Shown here: piece after piece, positions 8,647 to 58,200 of the stretch
Layout of the letters: the number at the start of each line of letters is the position of its first letter
Numbering within the stretch: the first letter of the stretch is position 1
From: Malacoraja senta
Taxonomy: Eukaryota
DNA length: 64,000 bases
NCBI GenBank assembly: GCA_038087875.1
Contig: CM075995.1
Location: forward strand, 11,162,001-11,226,000
Direction: 5' to 3'
The notes under the pieces: generated by a model
Databases searched by the model: none
The model's input: the letters and a program-made list of their open reading frames with translations, nothing else
What the model was told of the DNA's origin: nothing
Position numbers and translations under genes: made by a program

Positions 8647-37039
<28,393 letters not shown>

Positions 37040-48800: not shown

Positions 48801-49099
48801 AAGCTAATCCGTGACTGCGGATGGTCAAGATTATAAATGATCTCCTTCTATTTTCTTTTCTTCTTTTCTTTTCATTTATTCTCTTTCTTCTATTTTCTAT
48901 GTCTCAACTTTCTTATTTCATTCTTTATTTTTCTTTTTCACACACTATATATCTCACATTTTTCTATTTTTCATTATCTAACTTTTTTCTTTTTCTTCTT
49001 TATTTCAAAAAATTTAAAAAATAAGAAGCTGTACATAAAAGGTATTATGAAAATATGATTGTATACAATTGTACTTACTTCTAATAAACTAAAAGCAGA

Positions 49100-52000
49100 T
49101 ATTTTCCCAGAGCTCAACCTTGCATGCCTACGGTGGGGAGATTCTTACTCCTGTGGGCAAGGCCACGCTACGCTGTAAGATACTAGAGACCTCTCGGCCC
49201 CTCACCTTCTATCTCCTCAATCAAAAATGCATTCCCCTGCTGGGGATCCAGGCATGCCAGGAAATGGGACTGGTGTACTTCCACCGTGACATCCACCAGG
49301 TGCAGACTCTTATGGACCCGCTGGCCGATTATCCCGACCGCTTTGATGATAAGCTAGGCAAACTACCCTGCAGCTACAAGATTGTAGTGGACCGTAAGAT
49401 CGTTCCTGTGGTCCATGCTCCTCACCGTGTCTCCTTCGCCATGAGGGACAGAGTGGAGGCGACCCTACACAGTATGGTACAAATGGGCATCCTAAAGGCG
49501 GTCGTCGAGCCCACCAGCTGGGTCTCTTCCATGGTTGTTGCTGCTAAAAAGGACATGAGCGAGATACGCATCTGCATCAACCCCAAAGACCTCAACCTGG
49601 CCATTAGACGCCCTCACTACCCTATGAGAACGGTGGAAGAAGTCGCTGCACAGGTTGGTCCAGCAACGTTTTTTTCTGTCCTCGATGCCAAAAGCTCCTT
49701 CTGGCAGATACCACTGGACGAGCGGTCGTCCATTTTGACAACTTTCGCCACCCCCTACGGAAGGTTTCGGTTCCTCCGAATGCCATTCGGGATCAACTCT
49801 GCCAGCGAGGTATTTCAGCGGACAATGGAGCAGTTGTTTTTAGGTCTACCATGCGCCATAATTGTTGACGACATCCTCGTTTACGGTGAGGACGTTGCCG
49901 AACACGATGTCAACCTCCGCCAGGTCCTGGACCGGGCCCGGCAAATCAACTTGAAACTGAACCCCAAGAAGTGCCGATTCCGCGTCCCGGAGGTCACCTA
50001 TGTTGGACATGTATTCACCGCTGAGGGGTTAAAGCCAGACCCGCAGAAAACGGCTGCCATTTCAGGGATGCCCCCTCCCACCAATGTGGCAGGCCTGCAA
50101 CGCTTCCTAGGCTTGGTAAACTACCTGGGGAAGTTCATCCCCGACCTCAGCGAGCTCAGCGCTCCCCTGAGGGATCTGATCAAAAAGGACACGTCCTGGC
50201 TTTGGTTACCCAACCATCAGAAGGCATTCGACATTCTTAAGTCTAAGCTGATCAGCACCCCCACGCTCAAGTTCTTTGACCTGCAGCGTCCCATTGTCCT
50301 CACCTGCGACGCCTCTCAGTTCGGACTCGGTGCCGCCTGTCTCCAGGTCCATGACGGCCTGCAGCTGCCTGTCTCCTTCGCGTCCCGCACCATGACCGCC
50401 ACCGAACAGCACTACGCGCAGATCGAGAAGGAGCTACTGGCCGTGGTGTTTGCCTGCTCCAAATTCCGGGACTACATCGTGGGCAACACTTTCACCGTTG
50501 AAACTGACCATCAGCCACTTGTCACCATCCTCAACAAGTCGATCCATGTGGCCTCATCACGCCTGCAGCGCATGATGCTGCAGCTCCAGCGCTTCACGTT
50601 CACGGTGGTTTATCGTAAGGGCAAGGACATGTTCGTGGCCGACACGTTGTCTCGCGCCCCGCTGACGTCCACCGCTCGCCACCAATATGAAATGTCTGAG
50701 CTATTGGTGCTACGATTGAACATCGTCCCCTCACAGCAGATGAAGTCCCTGGTTGAACACACTACCAATGACCCTGCCCTGCAACAGCTGTCTGCCGTCA
50801 TCCGGCAGGGCTGGCCTGACCGTCGTTCGGCACTGCCGGCTGGTGCCGTGCCCTACTTCCTGGTCCGTGACGAGCTCGTACTGCACGACGGCGTGGTGGT
50901 GAAGGGTCACAAGGTGGTCGTGCCCGCGGCGCTGCACGACCACTATTTTCAAGTCGCTCACCGCGGTCATCCTGGGGCCGAAGCCACCGTGTCTCTCGCC
51001 AGGAGCCAGTTCTATTGGCCGGATATGGCCAAATACATCCGGGAGAGGGTCTCCTCGTGTTCCACCTGCAACAGCCTCGCCCCCCACCAGCAGCGCCAGC
51101 CGCTTCTACAGCAGCCCGCGCCCGAACTGCCCTGGATGGCGCTTGCCGCTGACATTTTCGAGTGGCGGGGCAAACATTTCCTGGTTCTCGTTGACTCCTA
51201 CTCCAGCTGGTTTGTGGTCGACCGGCTGCATTCCATAACCTCTTCGGCCGTCATCGATAGGTTGTACCCTCATTTTGGCACTTTTGGCCCCCCGGCAAGT
51301 CTGCAGTCGGACAATGGCAGCCAGTTCACGAGCTCCGAGTTTAAAGCGTTCGCTTCCAGATGGAACTTCCGCCATTTCACCAGCAGCCCGGAGTACCCGC
51401 AAAGCAACGGTTTGGCTGAGCGCGCAGTCCGCAGCGCGAAGCACCTGTTGGAACAGTGTGGTGGCATTAACTCCGACTTCCATCTGGCCCTCCTCAACCT
51501 TCGGAACATTTCCCGCGACTATGTCATGGGTTCACCTGCTCAGCGGCTCATGTCTCGCGCTACCAGACTCCCGCTCCCTGTGGCCCAGCGCTCCCTCATA
51601 CCCTCCATCCTCCCACCTGCGGCGGTTCAGAAACGCATTGCCTTCAGGCACGACGTCCAAAAGCGTTCCCATGACAGGTCCTGCCACCCGCTGCCGCGCC
51701 TCTTCCCCGGTCAAGTTGTCCGTATGCAGACCGCTCCCGGTCACTCCAAGCTCGCTACCGTCGTCGGCTCTGCGGGGTCGCCCAGGTCCTATCTCGTCGA
51801 CCACGCTGGAGCCATTTACCGACGGTCCCGCCAGCACCTTCGGCTCGTCAACGAGCCGCGTCCTCCTGCCGCGGATCCCTTTGCTCCCCCACTGCCTGTT
51901 TCGCGTCAGGGCGTTGCTCTGCCCGTCCTTCCTGACATGCAACGTTCTGCTCCTCCTCAGCCCCTTCCGTTCCACCCGCTCCGACTAGTCCTCGCTCGCC

Positions 52001-52218
52001 TGCCCGCGCTCTTCCCGGTCCTGATCTCGCATCCCCTCCGGGTTCGGTGCCGCGGTCTCCTCCGTCTCCTCCCGTTTCCCCCTTTCAGGTTCGTCTGTCC
52101 CCGCCGGTGCCTCTTCCTCCTGCAGGAAGGGTGGATGGCGAGACGCGAACCCGGGCGGGACGTCTTGTCAAACCGCCTGACCGCTATGGCGATTTTGTTT
52201 AACTATCCTAGCGCATGA
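49100..52218 (+). CDS. Gypsy pol (protease C-terminal part, RT, RNase H, integrase)
   Basis: VLDAKSSFWQI, RMPFGI, IIVDDILV, CDASQFGLGA, ETDHQPL, HHCC, SDNGSQF, SNGLAERAV. Confidence 0.95.
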
Positions 52219-52475: not shown

Positions 52476-53045
52476 CTATTGATAATTTTAGAAATCATAC
52501 ATTTCATTTCATTCTCCCACCCACCCCCCACCAAAACAAAAACAATAAAAAATGGTTGTCCAGGGACCGTTGCAGGAGGAGGAGCAGCGTCCGGGTGGTG
52601 AGTAGATAAACGGCGCGGGGTTTTACTTTCCAGACGCCCAGGGACCGTTGCAGGAGGAGGAGCAGCGTCCGGGTGGTGAGTAGATAAACGGCGCGGGGCT
52701 TTGCTTTCCAGACGCCCAGGGACCGTTGCAGGAGGAGGAGCAGCGTCCGGGTGGGGAGTAGTTAAACAGCGCGGGGCTTTGCTTTCCAGACGCCCAGGGA
52801 CCGTTGCAGGAGGAGGAGCAGCGTCCGGGTGAGGAGTAGTTAAACAGCGCGGGGCTTTGCTTTCCAGACGCCCAGGGACCGTTGCAGGAGGAGGAGCCAA
52901 AACTGCAACGTTCCATTCAAGTTTCCTATAAGTGAGGAAGCCGCTGATTGGTGGAAGAGGACAAAGAGAAAGCAGCTGATTGGGAGTCGGATCCCTGCTG
53001 ATTTCCTCCACCAGTTTTGTATTCTATCCAGGGTAAGGGGGGAGT

Positions 53046-53981
53046 ATGAGGGCCAGGGCAGTTTACTGTTCTGGATGTCAGATGTGGGAGGTCATGGAGT
53101 CTGATACCCCTCCAGACGTTCACATCTGTGTCAGGTGCGTAGAGATGGGGTTCCTAAGGGACCGTGTTAGGAACCTGGAGCAGCAGCTCGATGACCTCTG
53201 TCTGATCAGGGAGAGTGAGGAGGTCATAGAAAAGAGTTATAGGGAGGTGGCCACTCCAAGACCACGGGAGGCAGACAAGTGGGTCACGGTTAGGAAGGGC
53301 AAGGGGCAGAGGCAGGGACTAGTGAATAACCCGGTGGCTGTACACCTTGAAAATAAGTACTCCTGTTTGAGTACTGTTGAGGGGTACAGCCTTCCTGCGG
53401 GTAGCAACAGCGGCCGGGCCTCCGGCACAGAGACCAGCCCTATTGCTCAGAAGGGTAGGGAAAAGAAGAGGAGGGCAATAGTAATAGGGGACTCTATGGT
53501 TAGGGGGTCGGATAGGCGATTCTGTGGACGCAGTCAGGAGACCCGGATGGTAGTTTGCCTCCCTGGTGCCAGGGTCAGGGATGTGTCTGAACGCGTCCAA
53601 GATATCCTGAAATCGGAGGGAGAGGAGCCTGAGGTTGTGGTACATATAGGTACCAATGACATAGGTAGAAAAAGAGAAGAGGTCTTGAAAGGAGAATTTA
53701 GGGAGTTGGGAGGAGAGTTAAGGAGAAGGACTACAAAGGTAACAATCTCAGGATTACTACCTGTGCCACGCGACGGTGAGAGTAGGAATGGAGTGAGGTG
53801 GAGGATAAATGCGTGGCTGAGGAACTGGTGCAGCGGGCAGGGATTCAAATTTCTGGATCATTGGGACCTCTATTAGGGAAGGTGTGACCTGTACAGAAAG
53901 GACGGGTTGCACTTGAACCCGAGGGGGACCAATATCCTGGCAGGGAGATTTGCAAAGGCTACTGGGGAGACTTTAAACTAG
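53046..53981 (+). pseudogene. CR1 ORF1 (esterase), premature TAG at 53874-53876
   Basis: Aligns to ORF 21801..22811; the Trp codon is replaced by a stop; the natural end is ETLN* at 53981. Confidence 0.9.
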
Positions 53982-53986
53982 AGCGG

Positions 53987-56969
53987 TTGGGGGGAGGGAC
54001 TCAAATAGAGAAAGCTAGTGGAAAATGTGGGAGGCAGGAGGCAGAGAAGGGAAGCACTCGGATCCAAAATGTAGGGGAGAAAGCAGAAAAAGATAATAAA
54101 CAGAGAATAAGTGGTGGTGGGTTTCTTAAATGTGTATATTTTAATGCTAGGAGCATTGTAAGAAAGGTGGATGAGCTTAGAGCCTGGATTGACACCTGGA
54201 AGTATGATGTTGTGGCGATCAGTGAAACATGGTTGCAGGAGGGCTGTGATTGGCAAATAAATATTCCTGGATTTCGTTGCTTCAGGGGTGATAGAATTGG
54301 AGGGGCAAGAGGTGGGGGTGTTGCATTGCTTGTCAGGGAAGATATTACAGCAGTGCTTTGGCAGGATAGATTAGAGGGCTCGTCTAGGGAGGCTATTTGG
54401 GTGGAACTGAGAAATGGGAAAGGTGTAGCAACACTTATAGGGCTGTATTATAGACCGCCAAATGGGGAGCGAGAATTGGAAGAGCAAATATGTAAGGAGA
54501 TTGCAGATATTAGTAGTAAGCACAAGGTAGTGATTGTGGGAGATTTCAATTTTCCACACATAGACAGGGAAACACATTCTGTAAAAGGGCTGGATGGTTT
54601 GGAGTTTGTAAAATGTGTGCAAGATAGTTTTTTGCAGCAATACATAGAGGTACCTACTAGAGAAGGGGCAGTGCTGGACCTCCTGTTAGGAAATGAGACA
54701 GGGCAGGTGGCGGAGGTATGCGTTGGGGAGCACTTCGGGTCCAGTGATCACAATACCATTAGTTTCAATATAATTATGGAGAGGGTCAGAACTGGACCTA
54801 GGGTTGAGATTTTTGTTTGGAGAAAGGCTAACTTTGAGGAGATGCGAAAGGATTTAAAAGGAGTGAATTGGGATATGTTGTTTTATGGGAAGGATGTAGA
54901 AGAAAAATGGACGACATTTAAAGGTGAAATTTTAAGAGTACAGAATCTTTATGTCCCTGTTCGGTTGAAAGGAAATAGTAAAAAATGGAAAGAGCCATGG
55001 TTTTCAAGGGAAATTGGACACTTGGTTCGGAAAAAGAGAGAGATCTACAATAATTATAGGCAGCATGGAGTAAATGAGGTGCTTGAGGAGTATAAAGAAT
55101 GTAAAAAGAATATTAAGAAAGAAATTAGAAAAGCTAAAAGAAGATATGAGGTTGCTTTGCCAAGTAAGGTGAAAGTAAATCCAAAGGGTTTCTACAGCTA
55201 TATTAATAGCAAAAGGATAACAAGGAATAAAATTGGTCCATTAGAGAGTCAGAGTGGACAGCTATCTGCAGAGCCAAAAGAGATGGGGGAGATATTGAAC
55301 AATTTCTTTTCTTCGGTATTCACGAAGGAGAAGGATATGGAATTATGTGAGGTAAGGGAAACAAGCAGAGTAGCAATGGAAACTGTGAGATTCAAAGAAG
55401 AGGAGCTGCGGACACTTTTGAAAAATATGAAAACGGATAAGTCTCCAGGTCCTGACAGGATATTCCCTAGGACATTGAGCGAAGTTAGTGTAGAAATAGC
55501 AGGGGCTATGACAGAAATATTTCAAATGTCATTAGAAACGGGAATAGTGCCGGAGGATTGGCGTACTGCGCATGTTGTTCCATTGTTTAAAAATGGTTCG
55601 AAGAGTAAACCTAGCAATTATAGACCTGTTAGTTTGACGTCAGTGGTGGGCAAATTAATGGAAAGGATACTTAAAGATAATATATATAAGCATCTGGATA
55701 AGCAGGGTCTGATTAGGAACAGTCAACATGGATTTGTGCCTGGAAGGTCATGCTTGACTAATCTTCTTGAATTTTTCGAAGAGGTTACTAGGGAAATTGA
55801 TGAGGGTAAAGCAGTGGATGTTGTCTATATGGACTTCAGTAAGGCCTTTGACAAGGTTCCTCATGGAAGGTTGGTTAAGATTCAACTGTTGGGTATTAAT
55901 GGTGGAGTAGCAAGATGGATTCAACAGTGGCTGAATGGGAGATGCCAGAGAGTAATGGTGGATGGCTGTTTGTCAGGTTGGAGGCCGGTGACTAGTGGGG
56001 TGCCTCAGGGGTCTGTGTTGGGTCCACTGTTGTTTGTCATGTACATCAATGATCTGGATGATGGTGTGGAAAATTGGATTAGTAAGTATGCAGATGATAC
56101 TAAGATAGGTGGTGTTGTGGATAATGAAGTAGATTTTCAAAGTCTACAGAGAGATTTAGGCCATTTGGAAGAGTGGGCTGAAAGATGGCAGATGGAGTTT
56201 AATGCTGACAAATGTGAGGTGCTACATCTCGGCAGGACAAATCAAAATAGGACGTACACGGTAAATGGTAGCGAATTGAGGAATGCAGTTGAACAGAGGG
56301 ATCTAGGAATAACTGTGCATAGTTCCCTGAAGGTGGAATCTCATGTAGATAGGGTGGTAAAGAAAGCTTTTGGTGTGCTGGCCTTTATAAATCAGAGCAT
56401 TGAATATAGAAGTTGGGATGTAATGTTTAAATTGTACAAGGCATTGGTGAGGCCAATTCTGGAGTATGGACTACAATTTTGGTCGCCTAATTATTGGAAG
56501 GATGTCAACAAAATAGAGAGTACAGAGGAGATTTACTAGAATGTTGCCTGGGTTTCAGCAACTAAGTTACAGAGAAAGGTTGAACAAGTTAGGTCTTTAT
56601 TCTTTGGAGCGCAGGTTAAGAGGGGACTTGATAGAGGTCTTTAAAATTATGAGCGGGTTAGACAGAGTGGACGTGGATAAGCTTTTCCCATTGAGAGTAG
56701 GGAAGATTCAAACAAGGGGACATGACTTGAGAATTAAGGGACAGAAATTTAGGGGGAACATTAGGGGGAACTTCTTTACTCAGAGAGTGGTAGCTGTGTG
56801 GAATGAGCTTCCAGTGGAAGTGGTGGAGGCAGGTTCGATGTTATCCTTTAAAAATAGATTGGATGGGTATATGGATGGGAAAGGAATGGAGGGTTATGGT
56901 CTGAGTGCAGGTAGATGGGACTGGGGGAAGTATTTATTTTTAATTAAAAAAAAAAAAAAAAACATTTAA
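53987..56969 (+). pseudogene. CR1 ORF2 (APE+RT), frameshift near 56520
   Basis: The 850-aa and 142-aa ORFs are collinear with the minus-strand copy. Confidence 0.92.
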
Positions 56970-58200
56970 TGTTCGGCACGGACTTGAAGGGCCGAGATGG
57001 CCTGTTTCCGTGCTGTTATGGTTATATATGGTTATATGGTTATTCATCGTCACTATCTCGCTCACTCACCGAAGCAAAAAGCAATACAAGCACCAAAATC
57101 ATCGTCGTTTTGTACAAATGAACCATAAATACACCTAGTAATAGTTTTGAAAGCAGTATTTTCTTACCTTGAAGAAGCAAAACTGGAAAATACGTATGAA
57201 ACGGAGGTCCGTAGACACACAGTAGCTCAGCTGCCGAGACTATTTATCCCGAATTACCCATGACCTGGGCATGCGCAATTGTAATACCGAACTCACTTAT
57301 AGGAAGGGAGCAGGAAATAATTCAAACGGTATGAGAAGGCCAATGAAATGTAAGATGTGAGTTGGATTAAAGAAAATCCCAAGGCTTTTGTACATAAATT
57401 AAAAATGAACTCTCTACTAAAGGATACAAAATGCTGGAGTCAGAGTGGACAGATCAGGCGGAGTCATTAATAGACAATAGGTGCAGGAGTAGGCCATTCG
57501 ACCCTTCGAGCCAGCACCGCCATTGAATGTGATCATGGCTGATCATCCCCAATCAGTACCCCGTTCCTGCCTTCTCCCCATATCCCCTGACTCCACTATT
57601 TTTAAGAGCCCTATCTAGCTCTCTCTTGAAAGCATCCAGAGAACCAGATTAGTGACATTTTGGGTCGGGACCCTTTGAAGGATGCTGACCCAAAACGTCA
57701 CCACCTATCCACGTTCTCCAGAAATGCTGCCTGTCCATTGTGTAAACCAATGTCTGCACTTCCTTGCTCACTGCAGCTTTATTGTCCTGGTATATGCAAC
57801 AATTTTGAGGTAGTCTCCCTTCTTTTAGAATTTGGAGTATCTTGCCTGTGTGTGTTTAGTGTGTCTGAGTGCTGTGATCTTGCTGCAAGCTTGTCATTGC
57901 ACCTCACTGTACTGTGCACGTGACAATAAACGCCACTTAACCAAGTAGGTGCAATGGTGCGAACCTCCAGACAACACATGCAGCTGGTGACTTCAAGACT
58001 TTATTTAGAAAACACTGTACATATAAAATGCTGTCCCATGAATGTCTGGGAGTTGTATCTAGATTTTGAACAAGTAACAGATTATTCATAGGCTGCGCCA
58101 AGTCTTCCCCGCCTGCGAGGGGTGGTGCTGAAGCCTAGCCAGTGTAAAGCAAGATCCCGTTGTAAGCGAGGGCTGCTTTGGTGTTGACGGTATAGCTGAT

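Follow-up and report, generated by a model that had tools for sequence, protein, structure and literature searches.

A conserved U_UUA_AAC heptamer at the ORF1/ORF2 junction of esterase-type CR1 retrotransposons, a candidate site of −1 frameshifting

The CR1 element and its ORF1/ORF2 junction

We analysed a 64,000-nucleotide (nt) stretch of the Malacoraja senta genome (assembly GCA_038087875.1, contig CM075995.1, positions 11,162,001 to 11,226,000), hereafter called the window, which contains a near-full-length long interspersed nuclear element (LINE) at about 52560–57043 on the forward strand. The 5' untranslated region (UTR) of this element holds a tandem array of 4.3 copies of a 78-nt unit (52560–52897). 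It is followed by open reading frame 1 (ORF1, 53046–53981), which starts at ATG 53046 and encodes a Cys-rich N-terminus and an SGNH/GDSL esterase (Pfam PF13472, E = 9.6e-10, and tblastn). Translation of an intact sister copy gives an ORF1 product of 311 residues that ends in Thr-Leu-Asn before the stop. The body of ORF2 (54128–56539), in the −1 frame relative to ORF1, encodes an APE endonuclease and a reverse transcriptase (PF03372, E = 9.6e-16; PF00078, E = 2e-33; PF14529 was also matched). Its C-terminal part (56517–56969), as judged from the reading frames, is out of frame in this copy, and by eye a second copy in the window is open across the region. The 3' UTR (56970–57043) terminates in short GGTTATAT-type repeats at about 57015–57043, so the element ends in short tandem repeats and not in poly(A). 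A 3' end of this kind is a hallmark of CR1 LINEs. From its domains, its ORF1 matches and the similar junctions of elements that carry the CR1 label, we assign the element to the esterase-type CR1 LINEs. The closest named relatives of its ORF1 were little skate proteins (81–85% identity), and the family is dispersed and multicopy, with 40/40 scored copies, out of 738 candidates, at 96–100% identity.

One prominent feature lies at the very end of ORF1. A preliminary description of this stretch, made from the sequence alone, had proposed that a programmed −1 ribosomal frameshift fuses ORF1 to an ORF2 that lacks its own AUG, and the sequence elements on which it relied were all found in place. The heptamer T_TTA_AAC occupies 53972–53978 in ORF1 phase and is the predicted shift site; the ORF1 stop codon TAG (53979–53981) abuts it. 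The ORF2 frame is open from 53888 to 56539, and the −1 frame of the heptamer runs on into the endonuclease motif at 54143. The linker (53978–54142) is thus open in the −1 frame over the 164 nt that separate the ORF1 stop from the endonuclease Asn. No in-frame ATG was present within 53888–54400, where the near-cognate starts are TTG 53987, GTG 54167, GTG 54212, TTG 54233, TTG 54326 and GTG 54353. The G-rich tract reported to begin 6 nt past the heptamer was also there, and its conserved core is a run of five G's at 53989–53993, that is, +11 to +15 after the heptamer. The second copy of the family in the window, whose ORF1 is 85% identical, carries the heptamer at 21804–21810 on the reverse strand with the same 164-nt linker in the −1 phase (sequence and tblastn). 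That copy is near-full-length as well (about 18760–23020, reverse strand); it has another 5' UTR repeat and adjoins a fragment of a different CR1 family.

The window copy is dead, and the preliminary description had missed both of its lesions. An in-frame TAG at 53874–53876 lies 35 codons ahead of the normal ORF1 stop; it is shared by 3/30 fetched copies of the family, the other 27 having the Trp codon TGG. The second lesion is a break of the ORF2 frame near 56517–56539. Because of the premature TAG, ribosomes would not arrive at the junction in the ORF1 frame on this copy. Since the copy is broken, the frameshift claim concerns the family and not the window copy.

Conservation of the heptamer, its phase and the G-run

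We collected 125 loci of the source genome, top matches only, with one junction-spanning DNA query and four protein queries that ended short of the last residues. They fall into five families, A (that of the window) to E. With the end of ORF1 anchored by protein position, the heptamer was present in 116 of the 125 copies: 29/30 in family A, 29/29 in B, 25/30 in C (28 within 6 nt), 20/21 in D and 13/15 in E. The stop codon after it varied, being TAG in the window copy, TAA in families B, C and E, and TGA in one published consensus. Outside these counts, one old copy (L170) has kept the heptamer and lost the stop and the phase.

The heptamer was also found in other genomes. A metagenome scan returned 42 loci, of which 10 reach the junction, and all 10 carry TTTAAAC there, two of them beyond a copy-specific frame break. 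The remaining loci stop short of the junction (3), lack a match to the ORF1 C-terminus (23) or are distant esterases (6); no endonuclease match was obtained in the 13 loci checked for one. The loci with a junction are, we presume, mostly bird-like. TTTAAAC followed by a stop occurred 23 times in the first 400 letters of each entry of supplementary table 2 of PMC13343379, a motif-based count with no denominator. Of these matches 21 were inspected, and by eye 18 looked like ORF1/ORF2 junctions. The hosts of the junction-like consensuses are alligator, crocodile, bowfin, bullfrog, chimaera, stingray, coelacanth, bearded dragon (the TGA case), sawfish, catshark, dogfish and halosaur (PMC13343379). 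Scans of viral contigs gave no relative of the element, and a scan of prokaryote genomes gave two loci, neither usable. One protein labelled Pseudomonas aeruginosa (P0027) is a CR1-type ORF1 with 57% identity, probably reflecting host contamination of a bacterial record.

To find whether the protein alone accounts for this conservation, codons were compared among 10 representatives with 22–74% ORF1 identity over 50 ungapped alignment columns. All 10 end in NNT TTA AAC. The residue at −3 varies (Thr, Ser, Gly, Asp, His, Cys or Ala), and its third base stays T. In the same alignment, one codon was kept at 0/7 other invariant residues, and one third base was kept in 0/25 variable columns. Between-group codon agreement was 62/253 pairs for Leu and 30/55 pairs for Asn, and TTA accounts for 11% of Leu codons across these ORF1s. 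Given the codon usage of ORF1, the three synonymous choices that form the heptamer would coincide with a probability of about 0.008–0.026 per family, figures that cannot simply be multiplied because the representatives are related; 12/12 representatives carry all three. Protein databases point the same way. Among ORF1 homologs that have the DGxH motif, 75/87 end in Leu-Asn (LN); named entries from shark, ray, coelacanth, frog, turtle, lizard and snake are among them. Directly ahead of LN stands a residue without any NNT codon in 2/78 homologs, as against 36/78 at each of the next two positions. On these sequence comparisons, the heptamer is conserved past amino-acid need.

More distant ORF1 relatives whose tail is normal were examined as 88 representatives at 50% identity. 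A terminal tripeptide compatible with an X_XXY_YYZ heptamer was present in 53/88, against a background of 3.8%, the search profile having included the LN end. The tails range in length between 22 and 39 residues, and their ends are still LN, GN or KN. Ahead of LN, 24 residues were of the class with NNY codons only and 2 of the class with NNR codons only; ahead of GN the numbers were 0 and 16. As far as protein sequences can tell, these classes fit what T_TTA_AAC and G_GGA_AAC would require, and the distant tails look as if slippery heptamers had been exchanged. Ends in LN, GN or KN with matching upstream residue classes therefore speak for a slippery site rather than for a DNA word of fixed sequence. 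In one distant group (11 sequences) the xKN motif lies up to about 12 residues ahead of the stop. A fused copy from a distant family (P0169) reads Phe-Lys-Leu and then Lys-Gly-Gly at the expected spacing, and continues into the endonuclease. Among these proteins (P0098, P0107, P0123–P0148 and P0187–P0311) we also noted ends in GN (19 distinct tails) or KN (3), or tails rich in GF, FF or FL.

The relative frame of the two ORFs is kept as well. A strict endonuclease pattern missed family C, and a relaxed pattern was used afterwards. Among scored copies the endonuclease was in the −1 phase in 26/28 of family A, 23/27 of B, 13/24 of C, 8/18 of D and 11/15 of E, and −1 was the modal phase in 5/5 families and in 6/6 outside loci that reach the endonuclease. 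Out-of-phase copies were mostly 1–2 nt off the modal linker, frequently within the G-run, which is what decay of the copies would produce. Among copies in the −1 phase, the frame was open from the heptamer in 24/26 (A), 22/23 (B), 10/13 (C), 7/8 (D) and 11/11 (E). The distance from the ORF1 stop to the endonuclease was 98, 110, 152, 164, 194, 197 or 329 nt, and every one of these linkers gives the −1 phase. Over the linkers of 10 representatives, two of which (C and D) were chosen as open copies and three of which share sequence, the count of stops was 0 for the −1 frame, against 42 and 36 for the two others. Upstream, the −1 frame is closed 6–15 nt before the heptamer in 6/10 representatives, and any frame change is therefore confined in these to the heptamer region. 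An in-frame AUG in the linker was absent from family A and from locus L091 and occurred at scattered positions elsewhere.

Family D (L135–L154 and L047) appears to be chimeric. Its ORF1 end, its junction and the first 150 nt of its linker are those of family A (88–98% identical per 50 nt), and the rest is the remaining linker and endonuclease of family E (49% identical to A). Its modal 329-nt linker keeps the −1 phase without the UAAUG of family E, and its copies are decayed.

The five G's at +11 to +15 were present in 11/11 representatives and in 113/133 copies, in a span that includes the third codon position of a variable residue. Among the junction-like consensuses of PMC13343379, 6/18 have five G's at exactly these positions. 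Stimulators of the linear kind located 11–15 nt downstream of a shift site act with trans factors, as in the case of the CCCANCUCC motif of the porcine virus PRRSV (PMC5009743), and we regard the CR1 G-run as a candidate linear frameshift stimulator that may be unstructured. A G-quadruplex was predicted in 5/12 representatives only, and no natural G-quadruplex stimulator of frameshifting is known according to the accessible text of PMC5009743. No long-range C-rich partner for the G-run was found at a shared position within the flanks examined. Length changes of the G-run past the stop are frequent among genomic copies (L019, L031, L039, L061, L078, L080 and L083), and this marks the G-run as a hot spot of mutation or assembly error that can mask the −1 phase.

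The proposed frameshift and competing explanations

The heptamer, its phase, the adjoining stop, the open −1 linker, the fixed G-run and the conservation of all these are direct observations. On this comparative basis we propose that the CR1 junction heptamer probably functions in programmed −1 frameshifting, giving a fusion of ORF1, endonuclease and reverse transcriptase. For most ribosomes translation would end at the stop codon that follows the heptamer, and the 311-residue ORF1 protein would be released. A minority would slip back one base on U_UUA_AAC, pass the stop and synthesize a product of about 1,300 residues, resulting in a low ratio of ORF2 to ORF1 product as in retroviral gag-pol. 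Less securely, the pause may come from the unpaired G-run 10 nt downstream and not from a pseudoknot, through a bound protein or through contact with the ribosome at the mRNA entrance, and the adjacent stop perhaps assists. The heptamers listed as most prone to shifting include U_UUA_AAC, G_GGA_AAC and A_AAA_AAC (PMC5009743).

The comparisons thus support the fusion by frameshifting that the preliminary description had put forward. Synonymous changes that break the heptamer were absent at the family level, and its retention in 10/10 representatives, beside the control residues without a fixed codon, agrees with a constraint beyond the amino acids. The linker of the window family has no upstream in-frame AUG, and no splice joint was seen within 140 nt of the junction in four runs of contigs, a weak check limited to contigs, in which the two joints listed were 53593–53826 and 54362–54645. 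A look-up of RNA records gave no entry that contains the element, a result without bearing on whether it is expressed. The claim that ORF2 lacks an AUG held for the window family and failed as a general rule, since in family E an AUG overlaps the stop in 14/15 copies and scattered in-frame AUGs occur in several others.

Several observations weigh against the proposed frameshift. Only 13/24 scored copies of family C and 8/18 of family D are in the −1 phase, and the representatives of both were picked open. The UAAUG of family E places its AUG in the ORF2 frame; it is the coupling signal of SART1, and it likewise produces a −1 phase. The same UAAUG is present in 3/18 of the junction-like consensuses of PMC13343379, those of catshark and dogfish among them, and an AUG lies 2 nt after the stop in 3/7 outside representatives. 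UAAUG is absent in families A, B, C and D. An open −1 linker is equally predicted by reinitiation near the stop. Among the distant representatives, 35/88 lack a compatible terminal tripeptide. The reading of the GN and KN ends comes from protein sequences only, which are related to each other and were collected with a profile holding the LN end, so the Fisher p of 9e-10 overstates it. A weak search found no family-level natural fusion into a single ORF, and two single-ORF candidates were discarded as mis-joined gene models. The five-G core is not absolute (8/15 copies of family E). Finally, there was no conserved signal of a stem-loop or pseudoknot downstream (folding z −0.81 to +0.85 in 12 representatives), as judged with a program that does not model pseudoknots, and no stable first stem was shared. 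A slippery site alone usually shifts poorly.

The first rival is termination followed by reinitiation, as in SART1 and human L1. Ribosomes would restart near the ORF1 stop at an AUG or a near-cognate codon and make a separate ORF2 protein; the heptamer and the G-run would then be a signal for termination or tethering, or both routes would run side by side. Reinitiation is the working model for LINE ORF2 in reviews (PMC2881922, PMC10275272, PMC3708506), and it accounts for the open linker with no need of a pseudoknot. It is favoured by the UAAUG of family E and of the catshark and dogfish consensuses, and by an in-frame AUG, GUG or UUG that families A and D and 4/7 outside representatives have at most 11 nt from the heptamer. 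No such codon, however, lies near the heptamer in families B and C or in L091, L098 and L099. Reinitiation also leaves unexplained the exact X_XXY_YYZ word in slip phase, its retention in family E despite the AUG, and the switching among LN, GN and KN with matching upstream residue classes; a KN motif up to a dozen or so residues before the stop is unexpected for a termination signal. We consider reinitiation in place of frameshifting unlikely, and the two routes may coexist. Family E (L155–L169) joins the slippery heptamer to UAAUG, so that a slippery site and a SART1-like stop-start stand together, and one of its sub-lineages has four G's instead of five.

Three other explanations were weighed. 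TTTAAAC with the G-run might be a DNA or transcript signal, such as a TATA-like internal promoter, a splice acceptor at the TAG or a protein-binding site, that yields a separate mRNA for ORF2. TTTAAA resembles a TATA-like word, G-runs are bound by several factors, and the fixed spacing between the two would suit a bipartite site. However, a separate mRNA of the window family would lack an AUG ahead of the endonuclease, three of the five families have TAA as the stop, which abolishes the AG of an acceptor, and the contigs, a weak test, gave no joint nearby. Nor would such a signal require the lock to codon phase, which is kept while the length of the ORF1 tail varies. We judge this explanation very improbable. 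A need of the esterase fold for terminal Leu-Asn, with codon bias and shared ancestry supplying the rest, could draw on the relatedness of the families and the purine-rich sense strands of CR1. It is largely refuted by the sequence comparisons, and we give it scarcely any weight: TTA is a minor Leu codon here, the other invariant residues do not keep their codons, and the T ahead of TTA is part of the codon of a residue that varies. LN is not required by the fold, because the esterase ORF1s P0112 and P0117 end otherwise. Slippage of the polymerase in the T or A run, adding a base so that some transcripts carry the fused frame, would give the same phase and the same product, and changes of G-run length are indeed frequent in genomic copies. 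The T and A runs are three bases only, though, and the G-run, lying past the stop, could not join the ORFs. Among the rows listed for the four runs of contigs, none had an indel at 53972–53978. We regard slippage as highly improbable.

A broader proposition is that all esterase-ORF1 CR1 LINEs, from sharks to amniotes and in the distant hosts, obtain their reverse transcriptase through −1 frameshifting, fused to ORF1. U_UUA_AAC, G_GGA_AAC and A_AAA_AAC would have replaced one another between lineages, and in the vertebrate branch the stimulator would be a structure-free G-run at a fixed distance, recognized by a protein or by the ribosome, of a type not yet described among natural sites. We advance this generalization tentatively and think it rather doubtful as a whole.

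Relation to known systems

In the literature searched, in which most subscription papers including the original CR1 descriptions were beyond reach, no report of frameshifting in CR1 was found. The original chicken and turtle CR1 papers of the 1990s could mention it. The word frameshift is absent from the main texts of PMC13343379, PMC3905857, PMC4120745, PMC3708506 and PMC2881922, CR1 as a whole word is absent from the accessible sections of PMC5009743, and those of PMC11835228 mention frameshifting for retroviruses only. The canonical vertebrate CR1 LINEs with an esterase ORF1 (PMC13343379, PMC3905857) share with the present element the esterase ORF1 and the APE-RT (reverse transcriptase) ORF2, and the same junction occurs in published consensuses; the available portions of these two papers do not describe the junction signal.

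Among viruses, the closest parallel is the U_UUA_AAC site of the coronavirus infectious bronchitis virus, together with retroviral gag-pol (PMC5009743), which have the same heptamer and phase with a structural ORF upstream and a polymerase ORF in −1. CR1 differs in having no 3' stem-loop or pseudoknot at 5–9 nt, in its immediate zero-frame stop and in being a retrotransposon of the kind without long terminal repeats (non-LTR). The linear CCCANCUCC motif of PRRSV, bound by nsp1-beta and poly(C)-binding protein, is an unstructured low-complexity motif at a fixed distance of about 10–11 nt from the shift site (PMC5009743). The CR1 motif, which is G-rich, may be of this kind. Since PMC5911963 states that a −1 frameshift is needed for ORF2 of the Dictyostelium non-LTR elements TRE5-A and TRE3-A, frameshifting is not a new idea for non-LTR elements; those are other elements in another host kingdom. 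With SART1, whose stop-start signal is UAAUG (PMC3708506), and with L1, whose ORF2 initiates unconventionally, the proposed mechanism has in common that ORF2 depends on translation of ORF1, and family E shares the UAAUG with its −1 phase. Unlike these, most CR1 families here have no AUG at the stop, and all keep the slippery heptamer.

The way in which LINEs produce the second of two proteins encoded on one RNA has long been debated, and reinitiation is the answer usually given (PMC2881922, PMC3708506). If the frameshift is real, a major vertebrate LINE lineage uses a strategy like that of gag-pol, the CR1 ORF2 protein has an N-terminal esterase, and standard annotations of CR1 ORF2 begin at the wrong place. 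The junction is a short, exact and testable cassette that carries a candidate for an unstructured stimulator of frameshifting.

Just upstream of the CR1 element, the window holds a Gypsy-type pol frame with reverse transcriptase, RNase H and integrase (49093–52218, forward strand), open over 1041 codons.

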